Shown here: piece after piece, positions 45,222 to 54,001 of the stretch
Layout of the letters: every line of letters starts with the position of its first letter
Position numbering within the stretch: position 1 is the first letter of the stretch
Source of the DNA: Escherichia coli 042
GTDB lineage: Bacteria > Pseudomonadota > Gammaproteobacteria > Enterobacterales > Enterobacteriaceae
Assembly: GCF_000027125.1 (NCBI RefSeq)
Contig: NC_017626.1
Direction: 5' to 3' (one strand)
Length of the DNA: 64,000 nt
Made by a program: the position numbers and the translations under genes
Notes under the pieces: generated by a model
Database searches by the model: none
What the model was told of the DNA's origin: nothing
Seen by the model: only the letters and a program-made list of their open reading frames with translations

Positions 45222-46607
45222 TTATTCAGCTGGCAGTGCTATGCGCCACGGAAGCAGTTCGCTGACCCGGTTGACCGGCCAGTCTGCTATGACGCCAAGC
45301 ACATGGCGAAGGTAGCTTTCTGGATCCACGTCATTCAGTTTGCACGTCCCGATCAGGCTGTACAGTAGCGCTCCCCGCTCACCACCATGGCCAGAGCCGA
45401 AGAACAGGGTCTTCATCTTTTCACGCAACCAGCTTTCCAGGGATTTCAACAGCGGTTTCGTTTTTCGCTGACGTTCAGCAAGCCGCTGCTCTGCCGGCAT
45501 TCCCCTTATATCCGCCTCTATGGCGTACAACTGACCGATCTGCTCCAGGGCTTCTTCCGTCAGTGCTGACGGGATGCGGACGTGCACATCGTGGATCTTT
45601 CGGCGGGCATGAGCCCAGCAGGCAGCTTCCGTTATCCCACCATTGCGATACAGCTCGTTGAACCCGGCGTACGCATCCGCTTGCAGCACACCGCTGAAGC
45701 AAGCAAGATGAGTCTGCGGATGGATGCCTTTTCTGTCCGGGCTGTAAGCGAACCACACTGCAGGTGCCAACGCTGACCCGGCATTGCGGTCATCACGAAC
45801 ATACGCCCACAACCGCCCGGTCTTCGTCTTCTTATTACCCGGCAGCAGTACCTGGACCGGGGTATCATCGGCATGGAGTTTGCCGTCAGTCATGACATAG
45901 CCATGAAGCGCCTCTTCCAGCGGAGACAGCAGCCGGCAGCATGCATCCACCCAGCCCGACAGCAGTGAACGGCTCAGCTCCACACCTTGCCGGCCGTATA
46001 TTTCTGACTGGCAATACAGCGGGGTGTGCTCTGCATACTTCGAGGTCAGCACGCGGGCCAGCAGCCCCGGTCCGGCGATACCCCGCTCGATGGGCCGCGA
46101 AGGTGCAGGTGCCTGCACGATGGTATCGCACTGAGTACAGGCATGTTTTTCCCGTACCGTCCGGATAACCCGGAAGGCGCTACGCATCAACTCCAGCTGT
46201 TCGGCGGTATCCTCGCCCAGATAGCTCAGTGAACCGCCGCAGTTCGGGCAGCACGGCGCCGCAGGCAACAGTCGCTTTTCGTCACGGGGTAGTGATTCAG
46301 GGAACGGCTTACGGGTGCGGGTCTGACGCAACGGACGCTGTACTGCCGGGTCATACACCCTAACAGTCAGCGTATCGCTCTCTTTCTGAAGCCGGTTCAG
46401 ATCGGCTTCCATTTGTGCGATACGGCGGGAGACTTTTTCGGAACGACTGCCGAAGTTCATCCGGCGGAGTTTATCCAGCTGCGCCTGCAGATGGTCTATT
46501 TCGCGCTCCCGGTTGCTCAGCTTTTCCTGCAGGGCGTGGATCAGCGCTTCCTGTTCGGCCAGGCGCTGTTTCAGCAGGAAGATGTCGTCAGAAGAGATGT
46601 CGTTCAT
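45222..46607 (-). CDS. tnpC: IS66-family transposase TnpC (461 aa, ~76 aa shorter than copy 1)
   Basis: CCPNCGGSL...CTQCDT zinc motif and DDE core; region between ...[11 protein letters not shown] and ...[11 protein letters not shown] is shorter than in copy 1. Confidence 0.8.
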
Positions 46608-46656
46608 AAGCCCGTATTTTACCGGGCTTATTCTGTGACAACCAGGATAAAGAGAT

Positions 46657-47004
46657 TTACAGCATGGTCAGGGAGGTCAGCAGCCGCTTGGGCTGTCGCC
46701 AGTCGATACCTTCCAGCAGCATCGCCAGCTGCGCCTGCGTAAGGAACACTTTGCCATCACGGGCTGACGGCCAGGCGAAGCGCCCACGCTCCAGCCGTTT
46801 GGTCAGGAGGCACAGTCCGTCACCGGTGGACCACAGCAGTTTAACCTGACTGCCGCTGCGGCCCCGGAAAATGAAAATATGGCCGGACATGGGATCGTCT
46901 TTCAGCGCCGTTTGTACTTTCGCAGCCAGGCCGTTGAAGCTATTTCTCATATCGGTGATACCGGCAACCAGCCAAATTTTGGTCCCGGAAGGTAACGGGA
47001 TCAT
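46657..47004 (-). CDS. tnpB: IS66-family TnpB
   Basis: [26 protein letters not shown]... Confidence 0.85.
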
Positions 47005-47381
47005 CGCTTCAGTTCCTGTATCAGCAGAGTCAGGAGCTTTTCGCTGACATTGCCATTGAAGCGGAGCGTCCCGTGCCGGAACGTTACCTCACAGCTGATA
47101 CTGAGGGTTTCCGGGTCCTCTGCGAGCGATTCTGGCTGTTCGGCAGCTGCATCGAGAGTCACAGGAAGTAGCTGGGGGCTCTCTGAAGAAGGTAATAGCA
47201 GCTTTCCCTCGCGCCATTGTTGTCGCCATTTGAACAACAGATTGGCGTTAATGCCATTTTCAAGAGCAAGTTTTGAGATGGATATCCCGGGTTCACAGGA
47301 GGCAGCAACGAGCAGCTGTTTAAATTCGGGAGGATAATTAGGGAAGCCTTTTCGCCTGCCGGGAGTCACATTTTTCTGCAT
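47001..47381 (-). CDS. tnpA: IS66-family TnpA
   Basis: ...PEFKQLLVAASCEPGISISKLALENGINANLLFKWR...; start placed at ATG 47379-47381. Confidence 0.8.
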   Translation of the reverse strand: MQKNVTPGRRKGFPNYPPEFKQLLVAASCEPGISISKLALENGINANLLFKWRQQWREGKLLLPSSESPQLLPVTLDAAAEQPESLAEDPETLSISCEVTFRHGTLRFNGNVSEKLLTLLIQELKR

Positions 47382-47473
47382 ATCTGACACTTTGGTTCCC
47401 ACTACTTATTTGGTGGACACCACTTTGTCTAATTCGTCAGATTCTGACCAGACGGTTCAGGCTGTACGCTTAC

Positions 47474-47579
47474 CACTATTTTATCCCTGTTGAATTTGGT
47501 TAAGCCGGTGCAGACGCGCCGGGAAACGCACACCTGAACCGGCACAATAAAATACAATACAACCCCCTGTTACTGGAGA
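47474..47579. repeat. 106-bp repeat, copy 2 (copy 1 at 19040-19145)
   Basis: Abuts the IS66-family left end at 47473. Confidence 0.8.
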
Positions 47580-47735
47580 TACGAATGGAATGACGAGGCA
47601 GCCTGTCAGTCACAGGGGGCTGTTGGCATAAAATCAACGGAAAGGCCACCAACACCGGAATTAAGCTCCACAGTCCCCGCACTGGCAATCCATTCCCGGG
47701 AAAGGCATCACCGCAAACTGCTCCGGAGGCAACCA

Positions 47736-48170
47736 TTACAGCCTCTGTAACGGATTATCAGCCCTGGCATCTTCCGACGGCACCTCCTGCCGCCCCCACG
47801 CCCTGCTGTATACCCCGGTACCGCAGCGTGGGCAGCACTTTTCCCCCTCATAATCTTCGTCACACATCACACAAAACCACTTTCTCACCTTCACCGTATA
47901 ATCCGGAACCGTCATGCCCTGCAGATGCAAACGACGGGCCTCTTTCTCTGCCGGGTCAAGCCAGGTACATCGCAGCAGGATTTTTTCAGCGACAGTCATC
48001 TGGTCATGTTCAAACCACGGTGGTTGTCCGTCATTGCCCCGCTGAAGTGTTAACGGGCATCCACAGGACACACAGCACAAAACGTCCTGTCGGTTGTGCT
48101 TCGCAGCTTCTTTCGCCGTAACAAAATGGCCTTTGCTGTCATTCGCCATATAACAGTTCAGAATTCGCAT
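47736..48170 (-). CDS. Cys-rich putative zinc-binding protein (paralog B, ~144 aa)
   Basis: MRILNCYMANDSKGHF...CCVSCGCPL...PWFEH...WFCVMCDEDYEGEKCCPRCGTG; ATG at 48168-48170 preceded by AGGAGG; overlaps stop of paralog A by 13 bp. Confidence 0.6.
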   Translation of the reverse strand: MRILNCYMANDSKGHFVTAKEAAKHNRQDVLCCVSCGCPLTLQRGNDGQPPWFEHDQMTVAEKILLRCTWLDPAEKEARRLHLQGMTVPDYTVKVRKWFCVMCDEDYEGEKCCPRCGTGVYSRAWGRQEVPSEDARADNPLQRL

Positions 48171-48565
48171 ATTTCCTCCTGAGTTGTCCGGGGAATACTG
48201 AATCCTCCGGTCTGGCAGTGTGTGCAGTACTGCTCCCCATAATAATCGTGGTGACATTGTCTGCAGTGCCAGCTGGCTTTACGCACCACGGGTAAGGCAT
48301 CCGGTACGAATTGCTGCAGACGTTTAATCAACTGTATTTCTCTGCGCTCCGGCCTGACATAAGGGCACTGTTGACCGTGCTCTGTCAGCCTGTCGTCAGT
48401 GTGTTCAAACCAGGGAAGTTCAGTTTCGTATTGCGGATGGTATCTGAGTGCACTGCCACACAAGTGGCAGGTGTAGTTAGCATAAGGTGCGGCCTGTGCA
48501 GTACGGGCGCCCGTCAGACGTCCGTTGCCATCAAGAGCGATAAAGGATTTTGCGTACATAGTCAT
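48158..48565 (-). CDS. Cys-rich putative zinc-binding protein (paralog A, 135 aa)
   Basis: MTMYAKSF...CHLCGSAL...PWFEH...WHCRQCHHDYYGEQYCTHCQTG; same motif architecture as paralog B. Confidence 0.6.
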   Translation of the reverse strand: MTMYAKSFIALDGNGRLTGARTAQAAPYANYTCHLCGSALRYHPQYETELPWFEHTDDRLTEHGQQCPYVRPERREIQLIKRLQQFVPDALPVVRKASWHCRQCHHDYYGEQYCTHCQTGGFSIPRTTQEEICEF

Positions 48566-48818
48566 ATACCTCAGCCGCCAGACGACACGCAGGCAACAGC
48601 CGTCCCGGTACGGGCAGCGTGGTCAGGGTGTGAATGGCGGTTCAGTTAAAATCTGGACTGGAGTTTGGGTAAAGCAGGCTGGTTGCTGTTACAGCACTGT
48701 GGTTGTCACACAATGGAACACTGACGTAAAAAACAGTCAGTGGGCGAGTGGATACATCGTTGCTGCCAGACAACAACCCATACTTTTGGTTTGCCGGATA
48801 TTGGCGCGCCAGTCGTGC

Positions 48819-49424
48819 TCAACTCCGGCTACAGCCAAAATTGCGCTCACCGGTGCAGTGAGCTTTGGTATGCTCCTTCGCCAGATAGTCAGCACGTTCC
48901 AGCACTTGCTGAAAGCCGGTGTCATCATTACGCGCCAGCCACACCGCCGGCCAGGCCGGAAAATGCACCAGCGTGGCATGGCACCCGACATCCACTCCCA
49001 GGGCACTGCACCACGCCTGTTTAATCATCCCGGCCAGAGACTCCGGAGCGCGGTAATCACCGGCACGACACCAGGTATCCCGGTTGACCAGCAGCATCAG
49101 GTGATAGTGTTTTTTACCTTTGCACTCCCCAAACTCCCGGGCCCAGACGTAATGCAGGGTTGTGGGATGCACGCGTTTACCTTCCCGATGCTTACGTTTC
49201 TGGTAAGCGTCGATTCGGGCTTTCAGGGCATTGATGAAGCGGGATATCACAGCTGCGTCCGTTGCTGCCGGTACATCCGGGAGACGCAGGTCAACCCGCA
49301 ATGCCGTCAGGCGGGGATGAACATTCAGTGCGTGCCGCACCGTCTCACGAATACGTTGCTGCCAGAAGGGGTTGTATTTGTAGGTCATGGTTAAATCTCC
49401 GTATGGTTCATACGGAATAGCCAC
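48819..49424 (-). CDS. Hypothetical protein (201 aa); possibly inovirus Gp2-like family (tentative)
   Basis: Supplied ORF MAIPYEPYGDLTMTYKYNPFWQQRIRETV...; upstream of the Cys-rich pair on the same strand. Confidence 0.5.
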   Translation of the reverse strand: MAIPYEPYGDLTMTYKYNPFWQQRIRETVRHALNVHPRLTALRVDLRLPDVPAATDAAVISRFINALKARIDAYQKRKHREGKRVHPTTLHYVWAREFGECKGKKHYHLMLLVNRDTWCRAGDYRAPESLAGMIKQAWCSALGVDVGCHATLVHFPAWPAVWLARNDDTGFQQVLERADYLAKEHTKAHCTGERNFGCSRS

Positions 49425-49586
49425 GTCGTAAAAAATACGCAGAGTCCCTGAAGTGACCTCCGGCAGGACACTGTCTCAGGCACTCTGTGATAACCCGAAC
49501 GGTCGTCTCCGGACTGACGGTTGAATTTTCAGCGTCGTTTTTTAATGTAAAAAACCGGTTACGGGTAAGGCTGTGAGGAGGGAGTG

Positions 49587-49787
49587 ATGGTGATACGCAA
49601 AAAGAAGTGCAGGGACTGTGGAAACGCGATTACTCATAATACAGTGTGTTGCCCGTATTGTGGTTCTGTCGACCCCTTCGGCTACTACCGGAATACAGAC
49701 CGTATCGTTACCATACTGCTGGCGCTGATTATTGTGGTCCTGCTGACTACTGTCAGCGTCAGTGTGTGTATACTGTGTAGCTGGTGA
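49587..49787 (+). CDS. Small zinc-ribbon membrane protein (66 aa)
   Basis: CRDCGN...CCPYCGS followed by one hydrophobic helix IVTILLALIIVVLLTTVSVSV; GGAGGGAG SD before ATG 49587. Confidence 0.45.
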   Translation: MVIRKKKCRDCGNAITHNTVCCPYCGSVDPFGYYRNTDRIVTILLALIIVVLLTTVSVSVCILCSW

Positions 49788-51016
49788 GATAACGGTTCAT
49801 GTATCCCCTGAGCTGACAGTGTACCGTGTATATTAAGCGTAACCGACAGGTTCTCCTTCATACCATATTAAATTTTCCAGGGATTGCCGCTGCCTTATTT
49901 CGTCCCATACAGGAAAACTCATCTGGGTTTCTGACAAATACGCGAAACTCACAGCCCCTCAATATCAACCACACGTTGTAAGCCGGTAATACCTGAAAAT
50001 CAGCCTATTACCGCCCACGCCTCCGGCACCATTCCCTTTTGATTTCGAATTCTTTGTTGTCGCTATACCGCTTAATGTTCCCGGTCCTCCGGTGCAGATA
50101 ACACCGGAGTCATCGTAGCGCTGCTTCAATATTCAGGTGACATATTTCCAGACGGAAGCCGGCGCGCGATCGTAAAGTTTGTTCATTGTCAGTTCTGCCA
50201 GCCGGTTGTCAACGGCAGAGTTAAAGGCTTCCAGCTCCGCAAGGGTAAGTTTATAACGCGTGTGGGAATTCACTTTTCCCGCGTCTCCTGACGTATTACG
50301 GGCTGCCACTTACCAGGTGTCCCGCAATACAGCCTTAGTGTTCCGTTATCGGGGATCCGGACGCACCGCAACAACCGGGGAAGTATTTCTGGTTTAGAGC
50401 AGTGTCAAGAGGGATTTCTCAGCCCCTCACTCACCGGCTCAGTCTCAGGGCAGGAGCATTAATACGCTCAGTTCATGTCTTATACAGGAATGGGCACAGG
50501 GGGAGCTGGCGTGTCACTGCTGATTTTACGCATCAGCGTTCATGTATCTGCACTCTGATACATGAACGATTCACAGCGCTCTGTTACCGGAGAGATTTAC
50601 TCTCTTAGCTTACTCTGGCAAATCCTTTACGTTACTCTCTGATGACTTCTTATATTTATAATACCAATCAGACAGCCTTATCCCATCGGTGATATCAGTC
50701 TCCTCCTCGCCAGGAACGGGCTGACTCACTGTAACCACCTCCGAAAACAACTCTGCAATTATCAGAACGCCTGCTTCTCTCCCTGTCCTCACGAAAACTA
50801 TCCCCTCTTTATCGCGCGTGCGTGCGGAAGCATCTTTTCGCAACAACCACCCGGTATACCGGTACGGCTCAGCCACCGCAACCTCCCCGTTTATCTCCTG
50901 GCGGTCACATTCCCGATTATTTTTTACGTTTCTCCCCGGTTGTTATGCCGGTGAAGGTGGCGCGCTGTTTTCATGACCACACCGGCTGGTTTAACAACAT
51001 CCGGAGGAACATTCTC

Positions 51017-51223
51017 ATGGCTACCCCAGTTTCACTGATGGATGACCAGATGGTCGACATGGCATTTATCACTCAACTGACCGGCCTGACAGATAAGTGG
51101 TTTTACAGGCTCATCAGGGATGGGGCCTTTCCGGCTCCCATCAAGCTGGGCCGCAGCTCCCGCTGGCTGAAAAGTGAAGTGGAAGCCTGGCTGCAGGCGC
51201 GTATTGCACAGCCCCGCCCGTAA
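51017..51223 (+). CDS. alpA: AlpA-family prophage transcriptional regulator
   Basis: MATPVSLMDDQMVDMAFITQLTGLTDKWFYRLIRDGAFPAPIKLGRSSRWLKSEVEAWL; GGAGG SD 9 nt upstream. Confidence 0.8.
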   Translation: MATPVSLMDDQMVDMAFITQLTGLTDKWFYRLIRDGAFPAPIKLGRSSRWLKSEVEAWLQARIAQPRP

Positions 51224-51311
51224 TTTCTGACCGTTATCCGTTCACCCGCAGCAGACGTAATCCCCGGCCTGCCGGCGGCATTCTGCTGCCTGTTATATCC
51301 CCGTGAGGAAT

Positions 51312-51920
51312 ATGAAAATGAAACAACAGTATCAGACCCGCTACGAATGGCTCCACGAAAGCTACCAGAAATGGCTGACCGGCTTCACCCGGCACGCCGT
51401 ATCCTGGGGCGTGTGTCATCCGAATATCTACTACTTCCATAATCTGACGCCCGGTTGGGTGTCATTCAATGGTGAAAAACCGGAGATTGCCATCGTACCC
51501 CAGAGCCTGCACCGGCTGATTTATGGCCCTGACAAACGGGCCACGCCGCCCCTGGATGATGATCTGATTGTGAATTTATGCACCAGTGAACATCTGCTGG
51601 TTCATCATCCGATGCTGGAAGGCATTCTCCTGTCTGAATGTGAACGTCTGAGGCAGCGTTCTCTGGCAAATAAACTGATCAGCCTCTTCCGTCAGTTTGG
51701 TGGCACGGAGTTGCGCCTCAAACTGGTCTGGCTTTGCTGGCTTGATTTAATGACCGGAAACAGCCTTGAAGACTGGAAAGAGAACCTGAAACGGAAATCA
51801 GAAAAAGAGCTGGAGGAATGGATCATCAACCGTCAGAGGCAGAGCGCAGCACTGACGGATCTGATGGATCAGTACGTGCTCCTGGCATACCGCACAACGG
51901 TTGACGATAGCCGCAACTGA
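51312..51920 (+). CDS. Hypothetical protein (~203 aa), island cargo
   Basis: Supplied ORF; start codon among clustered ATGs at 51312-51320 is uncertain. Confidence 0.45.
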   Translation: MKMKQQYQTRYEWLHESYQKWLTGFTRHAVSWGVCHPNIYYFHNLTPGWVSFNGEKPEIAIVPQSLHRLIYGPDKRATPPLDDDLIVNLCTSEHLLVHHPMLEGILLSECERLRQRSLANKLISLFRQFGGTELRLKLVWLCWLDLMTGNSLEDWKENLKRKSEKELEEWIINRQRQSAALTDLMDQYVLLAYRTTVDDSRN

Positions 51921-53122
51921 TGCCGGTTGCTTCCGGAAGGTGTGACAAAATACGGAAATGATGATGCTCCCGGCCCTGCATGCTCACCTGCAGAGCGTGT
52001 TCGTCGTCATCATACTGAGCCATGACGGGCGTCTTAAGGGCATCCTGTCATTGCTGAGCAGGCAACACCACCAGAGGAGCCACGGACAGGGATGTTCTTT
52101 ACAGCCCGATACACGCCAGGTTCTCAGCAGACTGAATGTGCAGGTGCGGTTATTCACCAGAAATGGCATGCTGCGGTACATACCCATCCTGGTGACAATA
52201 TGTACGTGGCGACAGCGATCCCGGCACTGTGGAAGAGACTCACTCAGCCTGCAGGATATTCTTTCCGGCATCCGGGAATGTCCGCCTGAATGCAAACAGG
52301 ATGATATTTGAATCCGTAATACTGTTCTTTCATCATAAATAATTTATGCAGATACAGTTAACCGTTACAGTAGCCGGTTTGTTTTACCGGGAAATAATAT
52401 CCGTCAGACTGATGCCGGAACATATCTGAAACACGTTATGATGTTTTGTTATCAGAAATGTTGTATATTCTTATCCGTGGCGACAGTTTAATGCCCTCTG
52501 GTATCACCTTGGATAATGCATATCCTGCGATGATTCGTTATATTTACGGGACACGCCTCTTTTCATTGTGCTCCTTTTCAGACTTCATTTTCCGTAAGTG
52601 TTCCCCGGCATAAAGGAGGTACCTTTCTGGCGTTTATAACTCTCTTTATCGGTGACGCCGGTAATACAGGGAATACCACACCGACAAACGAGGTATTAAC
52701 AGACGATATTTCAGTGTCCATAATTTTTCTGTCCGGTTAAATAACGTCAGTCTGCTGCCCTCTGACTGTAATCATCAAAGCCGGAATGCATACCGGGTTA
52801 CAACGTAAAAAAAGTGATGCTGGCCCCCGGTGCAGCTGGCGGGCGAAACATGTTTACCTTTCAATACCCCCTGTCTGCAGTCTCCACTCTTCCATCCTCT
52901 TAAGCTACGTCGGCCACATGAGTGCACTTCCATGATAACAGGTATTCCTGTCAGCATAACGAAGCTGGTTACCTTCCCTTCCTCCTGCATTTCCTGTCAG
53001 AATGACTGTACAGCGCGCAGATTGCCTTTTTATTGACCACCTTAATATACCATTATAAACTTCTTTTTATCATGTTATTATCACCTTATTATGTTTAATT
53101 TTTAAGCAGCCGGAGAAAGGGG

Positions 53123-54001
53123 ATGGTTCAGAAAATTTTGTCGGATAAGGTTATGAATGAAAGAACAAATGCGTATTACTCTTATTATCTTGGAGGGCGT
53201 AATATCTCCGTACTGCCCCTTAATGTTTATGATCCCCCGGAACGTTTTATCGCTTACATAAAAAAAAACAGAGAAAATCTGAACATCACACTTTCAGATT
53301 TTGAACTTGAACAAATAATTTCTGGTATGCGTCTGAAGGCCCTGGCCTTCCTGGTCCCCCTGGAAAAAATATCCTGGATCGCGGGCAGTGAACGCGCATG
53401 CTTATTTTCCTGGTATCTGTTGATGCAGTTTATCCAGAATAACAGGGCAAAAATAAGCGCAGACTTGCTTCAAAAGAATAAACTGTATCTTAAAGAAGAG
53501 TATCTGGAAGGGAATGCCTTCCCGTCGGACTCATCGACACAGTTCAGACAAATACTCAGAGTTCTCGATATTCTTTCTGATAAGAATTTGCGGGATGAGT
53601 GGATAATCCAGACCAAAGACAGATGGATGCGGGCATTTAAATCAAAGAGTCCTTTCAGTTACCTCCTCCCGGAGAACGAACATGAATGCATATGGACATG
53701 GAATTATTTGAAGGGAAAAAATATTGCACTGGAAAAACTGGCCAGTTTTCCTGGTTCTGCTGATATTTACCACGCAATTCACCTTTCATTTGACATATGG
53801 GTTACCTGTCCACTCACCTCACCTGACGATATAAAAAATTTCAGAAACAGTTTCAATAAGGCCAAGGCGCAGCGCAAGTACAAAAAATGCAGGAAGATAA
53901 AGTCAATGTACAGTTTTTTCTTGACGCAGAAACCAGGGCGCAGCTCAAAGAATTATCGAGGGTCAGAAGACTCAGTACCGGCGAAATGCTGCATGACCTG
54001 A
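53123..54001 (+). CDS. Hypothetical protein (292 aa), AT-rich island cargo
   Basis: Supplied ORF; contains A9 homopolymer at ~53255-53263; an alternative frame over the last ~150 bp encodes MQEDKVNVQFFLDAETRAQLKELSRVRRLSTGEMLHDLIVEEYKRYRHSR*. Confidence 0.4.
   Translation: MVQKILSDKVMNERTNAYYSYYLGGRNISVLPLNVYDPPERFIAYIKKNRENLNITLSDFELEQIISGMRLKALAFLVPLEKISWIAGSERACLFSWYLLMQFIQNNRAKISADLLQKNKLYLKEEYLEGNAFPSDSSTQFRQILRVLDILSDKNLRDEWIIQTKDRWMRAFKSKSPFSYLLPENEHECIWTWNYLKGKNIALEKLASFPGSADIYHAIHLSFDIWVTCPLTSPDDIKNFRNSFNKAKAQRKYKKCRKIKSMYSFFLTQKPGRSSKNYRGSEDSVPAKCCMT

Follow-up and report, generated by a model that had tools for sequence, protein, structure and literature searches.

What does a genomic island carry in front of its alpA gene when neither an integrase nor an attachment site is found there, and has such an island lost its integration module or does it keep it elsewhere? 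The question arises for a window of 64 kb (the whole stretch of DNA analysed here, 64,000 nucleotides), which is E. coli chromosome and in which the interval 49790-51016 sits in a leuX (KpLE2-like) genomic island. An earlier note on this DNA placed the interval directly upstream of alpA, correctly as alpA starts at 51017, and took the island for a CP4-type one that had lost the integrase/att module upstream of alpA, or in which IS66 and a Cys-rich block had replaced it. In the CP4-57 prophage module of E. coli K-12, the order is ssrA-intA-yfjH-alpA, with the integrase and att within about 1-2 kb upstream of alpA. CP4-57 and the present island have in common an AlpA-family gene close to their start, together with YfjJ/YagK-type genes; the present island differs in that hha, YagK and Zn-ribbon genes stand upstream of alpA, the integrase lying by inference some 56 kb off. 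The content of the interval is ordinary and already known, namely a truncated hha paralogue that bears a name, hha3, and the alpA leader, both set in a conserved backbone, and the hha3 relic is its sole gene-like content.

Along the window, the order of the island runs from the fec operon through an IS1 and a phytase-like gene to IS66 (45222-47402), then through a DUF7828/Zn_ribbon_11 pair, a YagK/YfjJ gene, a 67-aa ORF and the interval to alpA, which is followed by a 205-aa ORF, a GTPase gene, Ag43 and a YeeU/CbtA pair. The features around and within the interval are as follows.

47736-48565, minus strand: the Cys-rich block, i.e. two DUF7828/Zn_ribbon_11 genes (Pfam matches)
48819-49424, minus strand: YagK/YfjJ gene (Pfam match)
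49584-49787, plus strand: 67-aa Zn-ribbon/membrane ORF, convergent with hha3
49790-50132, no strand: spacer without coding content from the 67-aa ORF to the hha3 stop codon, where no CDS is annotated in RefSeq relatives
50133-50309, minus strand: hha3, N-terminally truncated island Hha paralogue, a 58-aa ORF with a GTG start
50300-50650, no strand: lineage-specific segment replacing the hha 5' coding end, Shine-Dalgarno and upstream region; the stretch tested for similarity to full-length copies is 50289-50650
50610-50876, minus strand: 88-aa hypothetical ORF, WP_000840364.1 (PGAP annotation)
50917-51016, plus strand: alpA leader, with TTTTTAC at 50921-50927, a hairpin-forming segment and the Shine-Dalgarno GGAGG at 51003-51007
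51017-51223, plus strand: alpA, encoding an AlpA-family helix-turn-helix protein of 68 aa (Pfam Phage_AlpA 36.4 bits, HTH_17 32 bits)

All ORFs in the interval are short, as the earlier note had it, and the peptide it quoted as a possible decayed minus-strand fragment is the exact C-terminus of the ORF at 50133-50309, the truncated Hha paralogue. Its further claim that no intact gene is present needs rewording: RefSeq/PGAP annotates two CDS there, a 58-aa 'Hha/YmoA family' protein and an 88-aa hypothetical protein, and both are uninterrupted, but the first is truncated and the second is without a coding signature. An intact small gene, which the note had named along with a tRNA as contrary to its reading, is thus present in the annotation and not in the evidence, and there is no tRNA.

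The interval is a divergent region separating two backbone genes of flu/Ag43-type islands, which in E. coli are inserted at leuX or pheV/pheU. By megablast, it is matched in 3691 of 5426 complete E. coli genomes and covered to at least 80% in 1722. Positions 49400-50025 are 98% identical to the island copies L010-L012 and matchless in the copy L005, to which positions 50027-50288 show 93.6% identity, and IS elements are inserted within the interval in ETEC1731 and strain 315. With the KpLE2/leuX and pheV/pheU Ag43-type islands, the common traits are a tRNA-Leu or tRNA-Phe att site, a P4-type integrase at one end, the fec cargo and the alpA...GTPase-Ag43...YeeU/CbtA backbone; there is no essential difference, the window being one mosaic variant.

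Regarding the integration module, the searches with ARAGORN, Rfam, tblastn and tRNA 3' ends were all empty for the interval, in line with the earlier note. ARAGORN finds 0 tRNA or tmRNA genes in the whole 64-kb window, the Rfam 15 covariance models give no match at E<=1 in 46000-54000, and tblastn with three P4-type integrases reaches a best E of 0.85 in the window and of 0.13 in the interval alone; likewise, the 3' ends of leuX tRNA-Leu and of tRNA-Phe have no match of at least 17 nt at 2 mismatches or fewer. At 50019-50032, 13/14 positions agree with the leuX 3' end, which is chance level (E 5.4); this stretch was rejected as an att remnant because Ag43 contains an equal match and no T-arm sequence stands in front of the one at 50019-50032.

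The absence of integrase, tRNA and att remnant from the interval and the whole window agrees with a lost or replaced module, as does the fact that IS66 adjoins the Zn-ribbon genes at 47402 and that the interval is an IS insertion hotspot in other strains, but genomes collinear with the window tell otherwise. ETEC1731, collinear with positions 1-36001 at 99.94% identity, has, ahead of the point matching window position 1, a tRNA-Leu (leuX) at 6.5 kb and, at 5-6.3 kb, a P4-type integrase (Arm-DNA-bind_3, Phage_int_M and Phage_integrase domains), while MARGA_4 (99.84% identity over 31964-64000) has leuX and an integrase about 40 kb upstream of alpA; both genomes thus carry at the left end the module held to be lost. 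The order Zn-ribbon/YagK/hha/alpA is also present in L004, L005, L094 and L009-L013, and in L005, a compact tRNA-Phe island, the tRNA has the P4-type integrase as its neighbour, on the side of the Zn-ribbon block away from hha and about 6 kb from the latter. Because this same gene order occurs in integrase-bearing islands, the Cys-rich block is backbone and not a replacement; IS66 abuts that backbone at 47402, so that a portion to the left of the Zn-ribbon genes may be displaced. Besides, among 80 cross-species AlpA loci from other Enterobacterales, a P4-type integrase occurs within 6 kb upstream in 1 and within about 6 kb downstream in 3, leaving 76 without an integrase within about 6 kb on either side. 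Since such an arrangement is so rare in these loci, the expectation of an integrase directly upstream of alpA, on which the earlier note built, misfits this AlpA subfamily and is a weak premise. Of note, a Hha homologue within 6 kb of alpA was found in 0 of the same 80 loci.

Loss or replacement of the module upstream of alpA is thus largely refuted already and must be deemed very improbable. Based on the collinear genomes, the most likely place of the P4-type integrase and leuX is the left end of the island, a short way beyond the window and some 56-57 kb upstream of alpA. Cargo flanked by IS elements (fec, shf-capU-virK, PTS and others) would then separate this left-end integrase from alpA, and the interval 49790-51016 would be no place for an integrase or an att site. 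There is nothing out of the ordinary upstream of alpA, and it is not shown that the island is without an integration module.

What the interval does hold is the 58-aa minus-strand ORF, named 'Hha/YmoA family nucleoid-associated regulatory protein' in RefSeq. Its product matches Pfam HHA (PF05321) with 64.1 bits (cutoff 25, E 1.5e-17) over profile positions 14-57 of 57 only, and NCBIfam Hha NF008191 with 66.1 bits, under the cutoff of 90, over profile positions 27-71 of 72; with the latter model, the 70-aa island paralogue P0027 scores 101.7 bits, above the cutoff. The C-terminal 46 residues align with Hha residues 26-71 (PDB 1JW2, 4ICG; E 2.7e-12), and it is in this part that the product resembles the Hha/YmoA family (Hha, Cnu/YdgT, YmoA; PDB 1JW2, 4ICG, 2K5S). 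It differs by a length of 58 aa, against 67-72 aa in the members, and by the missing helix 1 and LRRC motif; in the protein alignment, it is the family-conserved W/Y-L-x-x-L/F-R-R/K-C segment of helix 1 that it is without. Close relatives of the protein in E. coli come in many lengths, the intact forms having 70 aa (MEVKTKEDWLYQFRRCSSRETLEKV...), and one of these, P0008, is 100% identical to the hha3 product over the last 48 residues. Relative to the 70-aa island copies, about 22 N-terminal residues are missing and the first 11-12 residues are unrelated. The product keeps D34, R36 and W54, which are invariant columns of the aligned C-terminal part; D34 is the equivalent of Hha D48, an acidic residue of helix 3 that contacts H-NS.

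Structure predictions made by AF2 with a shallow alignment give the 70-aa form four helices (6-13, 19-29, 35-52 and 63-66) at a pTM of 0.55, and the 58-aa form a pLDDT of 62 and a pTM of 0.31, residues 1-17 falling below pLDDT 50. At the nucleotide level, the GTG start of the ORF abuts the preceding TAA and is served by no Shine-Dalgarno, as opposed to the GAGAGG found shortly upstream of the ATG in the full-length island copies. The lesions can be arranged as a series, from the intact 70-aa gene (L005) to a 14-nt deletion in codons 7-11 (L012 and L013, both PGAP pseudogenes), then to an extra 1-nt deletion (GAGACGC^GGG) that restores the frame and yields 65 aa with a scrambled N-terminus (L094), and finally to the window, where unrelated sequence stands in place of all that lay upstream of GGAGACGC, leaving 58 aa.

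On these alignments, hha3 is a truncated derivative of the 70-aa island Hha paralogue, from which the ATG, the Shine-Dalgarno and the native upstream region are gone, because 50289-50650 shows no similarity to the full-length 5' region. The local alignment of the two scores 23, shuffled sequences giving a mean of 18.9 and a maximum of 30. Decay in situ of the hha 5' end was considered and rejected, the segment being a replacement without detectable similarity. The lost upstream region would have held the hha3 promoter, and the copy has lost helix 1 entirely and helix 2 by half.

The replacing segment is widespread, being found at 95-100% identity in 2826 of 5426 E. coli genomes, the full-length 5' segment being found in 2157, and it adjoins the hha remnant in every copy examined. 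Complete E. coli genomes carry roughly 3400 copies of the truncated lineage and roughly 3100 of the full-length one. No source for it was found in phages; in the plasmid collection, it has 5 matches, one of which is a chromosome-sized record of 4.9 Mb, with no annotated feature beneath. A scan for sigma-70 promoters and terminators returned counts equal to the shuffle expectation. The segment also contains a perfect 12-bp inverted repeat (50537-50568), to which no function was assigned, since sister copies have it in imperfect form and no T-run comes after it.

The gene already has a place in the literature, since two island paralogues of hha were described in EAEC 042, hha2 (EC042_4516) and hha3 (EC042_4796) (Prieto et al., 2016, Sci Rep; PMC4864382). 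The primers of the supplementary table of that study were mapped onto the window, with the following sites.

50268-50287: hha3 PCR forward primer, 0 mismatches
50134-50155: hha3 PCR reverse primer, 0 mismatches
50304-50345: lambda-Red P1 homology arm, 1 mismatch
50097-50138: lambda-Red P2 homology arm, 0 mismatches
50550-50569: P1-UP check primer, 0 mismatches

The forward PCR primer covers the diagnostic 1-nt deletion, the lone mismatch of the P1 arm falls within the GTG start codon, and the P1-UP site lies within the lineage-specific 5' segment. From the mapping of these five primers, it follows that EC042_4796 is the 58-aa allele found here, its 5' flank included; the published hha3 and the present ORF are also alike in context, with alpA, the GTPase gene and ag43/flu. 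The truncation goes unmentioned in both Prieto et al. (2016; PMC4864382) and Bernabeu et al. (2019, BMC Genomics; PMC6480617), which treat hha3 as a paralogue; the word 'truncated' has 0 occurrences in the text of the former and is not applied to hha3 in the two later papers.

Full-length Hha proteins bind H-NS at its N-terminal dimerisation domain and reinforce silencing of genes that were acquired horizontally. As to whether hha3 still takes part in this, we infer, with a probability of about 0.75, that it is a remnant, truncated in structure, weakly expressed and degenerate in function. The alternative is a working short Hha, which would bind H-NS through helix 3 and the C-terminus and act as a co-silencer, e.g. 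of ag43, or as a decoy weakening Hha/H-NS silencing; the decoy version appeals to the missing helix-1 segment, by analogy with truncated H-NS (H-NST), and is, like the working protein in general, conceivable but doubtful. The C-terminal match to Hha, in which the invariant residues of that part are retained, the D48 equivalent included, is what a working protein has on its side structurally, but helix 1 is gone and helix 2 is predicted to be disordered. Similarly, the CDS is uninterrupted in RefSeq and its frame was restored by the 1-nt deletion, which may be due to selection for continued translation of the C-terminal part, but its GTG, abutting a stop codon, has no Shine-Dalgarno, and the native upstream region has been replaced.

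The distribution of alleles can also be argued both ways. The exact 58-aa protein occurs on at least 1000 contigs, and its lineage is that of the 2826 genomes mentioned above, which would suit a maintained gene, but common 58-aa alleles swap family-invariant residues, with W54R on 419 contigs and also R36W, and I stands in place of the near-invariant M42 on 754 contigs. Sister copies that share the 5' replacement decay freely, their further lesions including a 4-bp deletion, 3' deletions and a GTG turned into GTA; L009 and L011 are pseudogenes according to PGAP, which leaves L010 unannotated. The IS elements within the interval in ETEC1731 and strain 315 count as a sign of the same kind. The evidence on selection points to relaxed constraint. 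With respect to experiments, Prieto et al. (2016) report that all three paralogues modulate one ag43 allele and that deletion of hha3 alters expression of ag43 EC042_2242 in EAEC 042, a phenotype that favours a working protein, if indirectly, but in the same study hha3 mRNA was 'significantly lower' than that of hha and hha2 (PMC4864382), and in a later paper of the same group the 'hha null' strain is deleted for hha and hha2 only. A degenerate remnant therefore stays the preferred reading of hha3. The gene, which has been put forward as a virulence marker for PCR and regarded as a regulator, is a 5'-truncated remnant present in about half of complete E. coli genomes, and because of this, functional claims on hha3 need direct tests at the protein level.

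The second annotated CDS of the interval, the 88-aa ORF, is called WP_000840364.1 in many genomes, and its 90% cluster holds 623 member sequences, as could be expected from a real small protein gene, but other lines of evidence go against it. It has no Pfam or NCBIfam match, and its homologues are nearly all from E. coli (one labelled Shigella and one Escherichia sp.), range from 48 to 134 aa and, for some of them, read the same DNA in a shifted frame in their middle parts. Substitutions per codon position number 22/21/24 relative to L005, and 19/13/22 and 20/21/26 for two other copies, i.e. without third-position bias; among seven island copies, the diverged ones have 3-17 deleted columns and most of these copies show frame-breaking indels. 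In the same copies, alpA as a control has 2/1/8 substitutions per codon position, a third-position bias, and no indels, and its divergence from L005 is about 5%, against about 26% for the 88-aa stretch. Besides, the ORF is left unannotated in several copies, and a second gene caller reads part of the stretch on the opposite strand, as an ORF of 68 aa. The plus strand there has a strong bias of C over G (GC skew about -0.4). That a real gene is encoded is hardly credible; the 88-aa ORF is most likely non-coding, a compositional artefact, and WP_000840364.1 looks like a spurious RefSeq call.

Within the interval, only the last 100 bp or so are conserved, even in L004 where the upstream gene is a different one. 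Among seven island copies, this alpA leader (50917-51016) diverges by 0-10%, against about 26% for the 250 bp upstream of it. In the window, its predicted fold has an energy of -34.5 kcal/mol (z -2.27), with 50928-50935 pairing with the Shine-Dalgarno region. The AlpA family includes regulators of island excision. The leader probably controls the expression of alpA, and it can be put forward, tentatively and at rather long odds, that 50917-51016 is an undescribed cis-regulatory leader RNA of AlpA-family genes in Enterobacterales islands, gating AlpA translation. As a switch, the 5' arm would mimic the Shine-Dalgarno, and the 3' arm, an anti-Shine-Dalgarno, could alternatively pair with the real one. 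The structure is a lead and not a result. RNAalifold gives no consensus structure for a MAFFT alignment of all leader subtypes, the test of Shine-Dalgarno pairing (occlusion) is not significant overall (0.71, against 0.64 in shuffles), and Rfam has no match at gathering threshold in 12 cross-species alpA loci. Conserved and absent from Rfam, the hairpin is a candidate control element of an AlpA-family regulator.

As side observations across alpA loci, the part of the leader between -78 and -21 has a more stable fold than its dinucleotide shuffles (mean z -2.4 across 40 non-identical loci), with z below -2 in 55-58% of loci, as against mean z values between -0.4 and +0.1 for five control segments of the same loci. 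Compared with the antisense, the sense strand has the better fold by about 2 kcal/mol (29 vs. 10 loci, with a p-value that is indicative only as the loci are related), which speaks for an RNA structure rather than a DNA palindrome. Stem sequences vary among subtypes; the 3' arm of the hairpin usually contains an anti-Shine-Dalgarno, and the 5' arm a Shine-Dalgarno-like sequence. Within subtypes, covariation is weak; in one subtype, the share of cells in which both pairings hold is 82-87%, vs. 28-50% with the partners slid. The motif TTTTTAC stands about 90-96 nt before the alpA ATG in 36 loci.

In the window, the island hha gene has had its 5' end replaced by a 351-bp segment. At 95-100% identity, this segment occurs in 2826 of 5426 E. 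coli genomes, and the hha remnant adjoins it in every copy examined. The features considered here are as follows.

49584-49787, plus strand: 67-aa ORF, hypothetical in RefSeq
50300-50650: 351-bp segment in place of the island hha 5' end
50307-50309, minus strand: presumed GTG start of hha3, inside the match to primer '4796 P1' (50304-50345)
50610-50876, minus strand: WP_000840364.1, 88-aa hypothetical protein (RefSeq)
50917-51016: conserved alpA leader, compared with the ~100 nt upstream of each alpA in the loci from other Enterobacterales (L014-L093)

Within the 351-bp segment lies a perfect 12-bp inverted repeat (50537-50568), which is imperfect in the sister copies. Regarding the presumed start of hha3, the published lambda-Red primer '4796 P1' differs from the window by a single base, reading GTC where the window has the GTG; this is either a typographical error in the primer or a true difference in strain 042. 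Elsewhere, the hha alleles of E. coli islands display a series of lesions (L094 2501-2698; L012 and L013; proteins P0005, P0015, P0017 and P0021): some are pseudogenes with a 14-nt deletion, in others an additional 1-nt deletion restores the frame and gives a 65-aa form, and many have unrelated N-termini fused on. Among the copies to which PGAP gives pseudogene status is the one in L013, whose sequence fits the hha2 reverse primer.

Between the hha remnant and alpA, WP_000840364.1 is probably a spurious gene call, as judged from the sequence: a coding signature was looked for in this ORF and none was seen, substitutions are spread evenly across codon positions, indels break the frame among copies and the supposed homologues are frame-shifted. 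The underlying DNA has a strong C-over-G bias on the plus strand. On the other side of hha3, GCCTCCGGCACCA at 50019-50032 is similar to the 3' end of tRNA-Leu(leuX) (13/14) and sits at the limits of the inter-copy homology blocks (50025-50027); this likeness is statistically at chance level, and the motif was not found in L005 or L013. Further upstream, the 67-aa ORF, which is conserved beside YagK across the examined island copies, combines an N-terminal CxxC...CxxC zinc ribbon with a hydrophobic C-terminal tail, and all its family matches are weak.

The alpA leader, which matches no family in Rfam 15, carries TTTTTAC ~90-96 nt 5' of the alpA ATG, followed by a hairpin at -78..-21. Over 40 non-identical loci the hairpin has a mean z of -2.4, against -0.4 to +0.1 for control segments; the fold is stronger on the sense than on the antisense strand, and the stems vary in sequence from subtype to subtype. 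Of the two hairpin arms, the 5' one has the appearance of a Shine-Dalgarno mimic and the 3' one that of an anti-Shine-Dalgarno.

Other strains show the hha-alpA interval to be an IS target: ETEC1731 (L008 15131-19444) has ISEc43, of the IS66 family, as well as an IS3-family element there, and strain 315 has IS1. Compared with sequenced strains, window 1-64000 has a mosaic make-up, with 1-36001 matching ETEC1731 at 99.94% and 31964-64000 matching MARGA_4 at 99.84%; in strain CV839-06, the two halves lie ~2.5 Mb apart.
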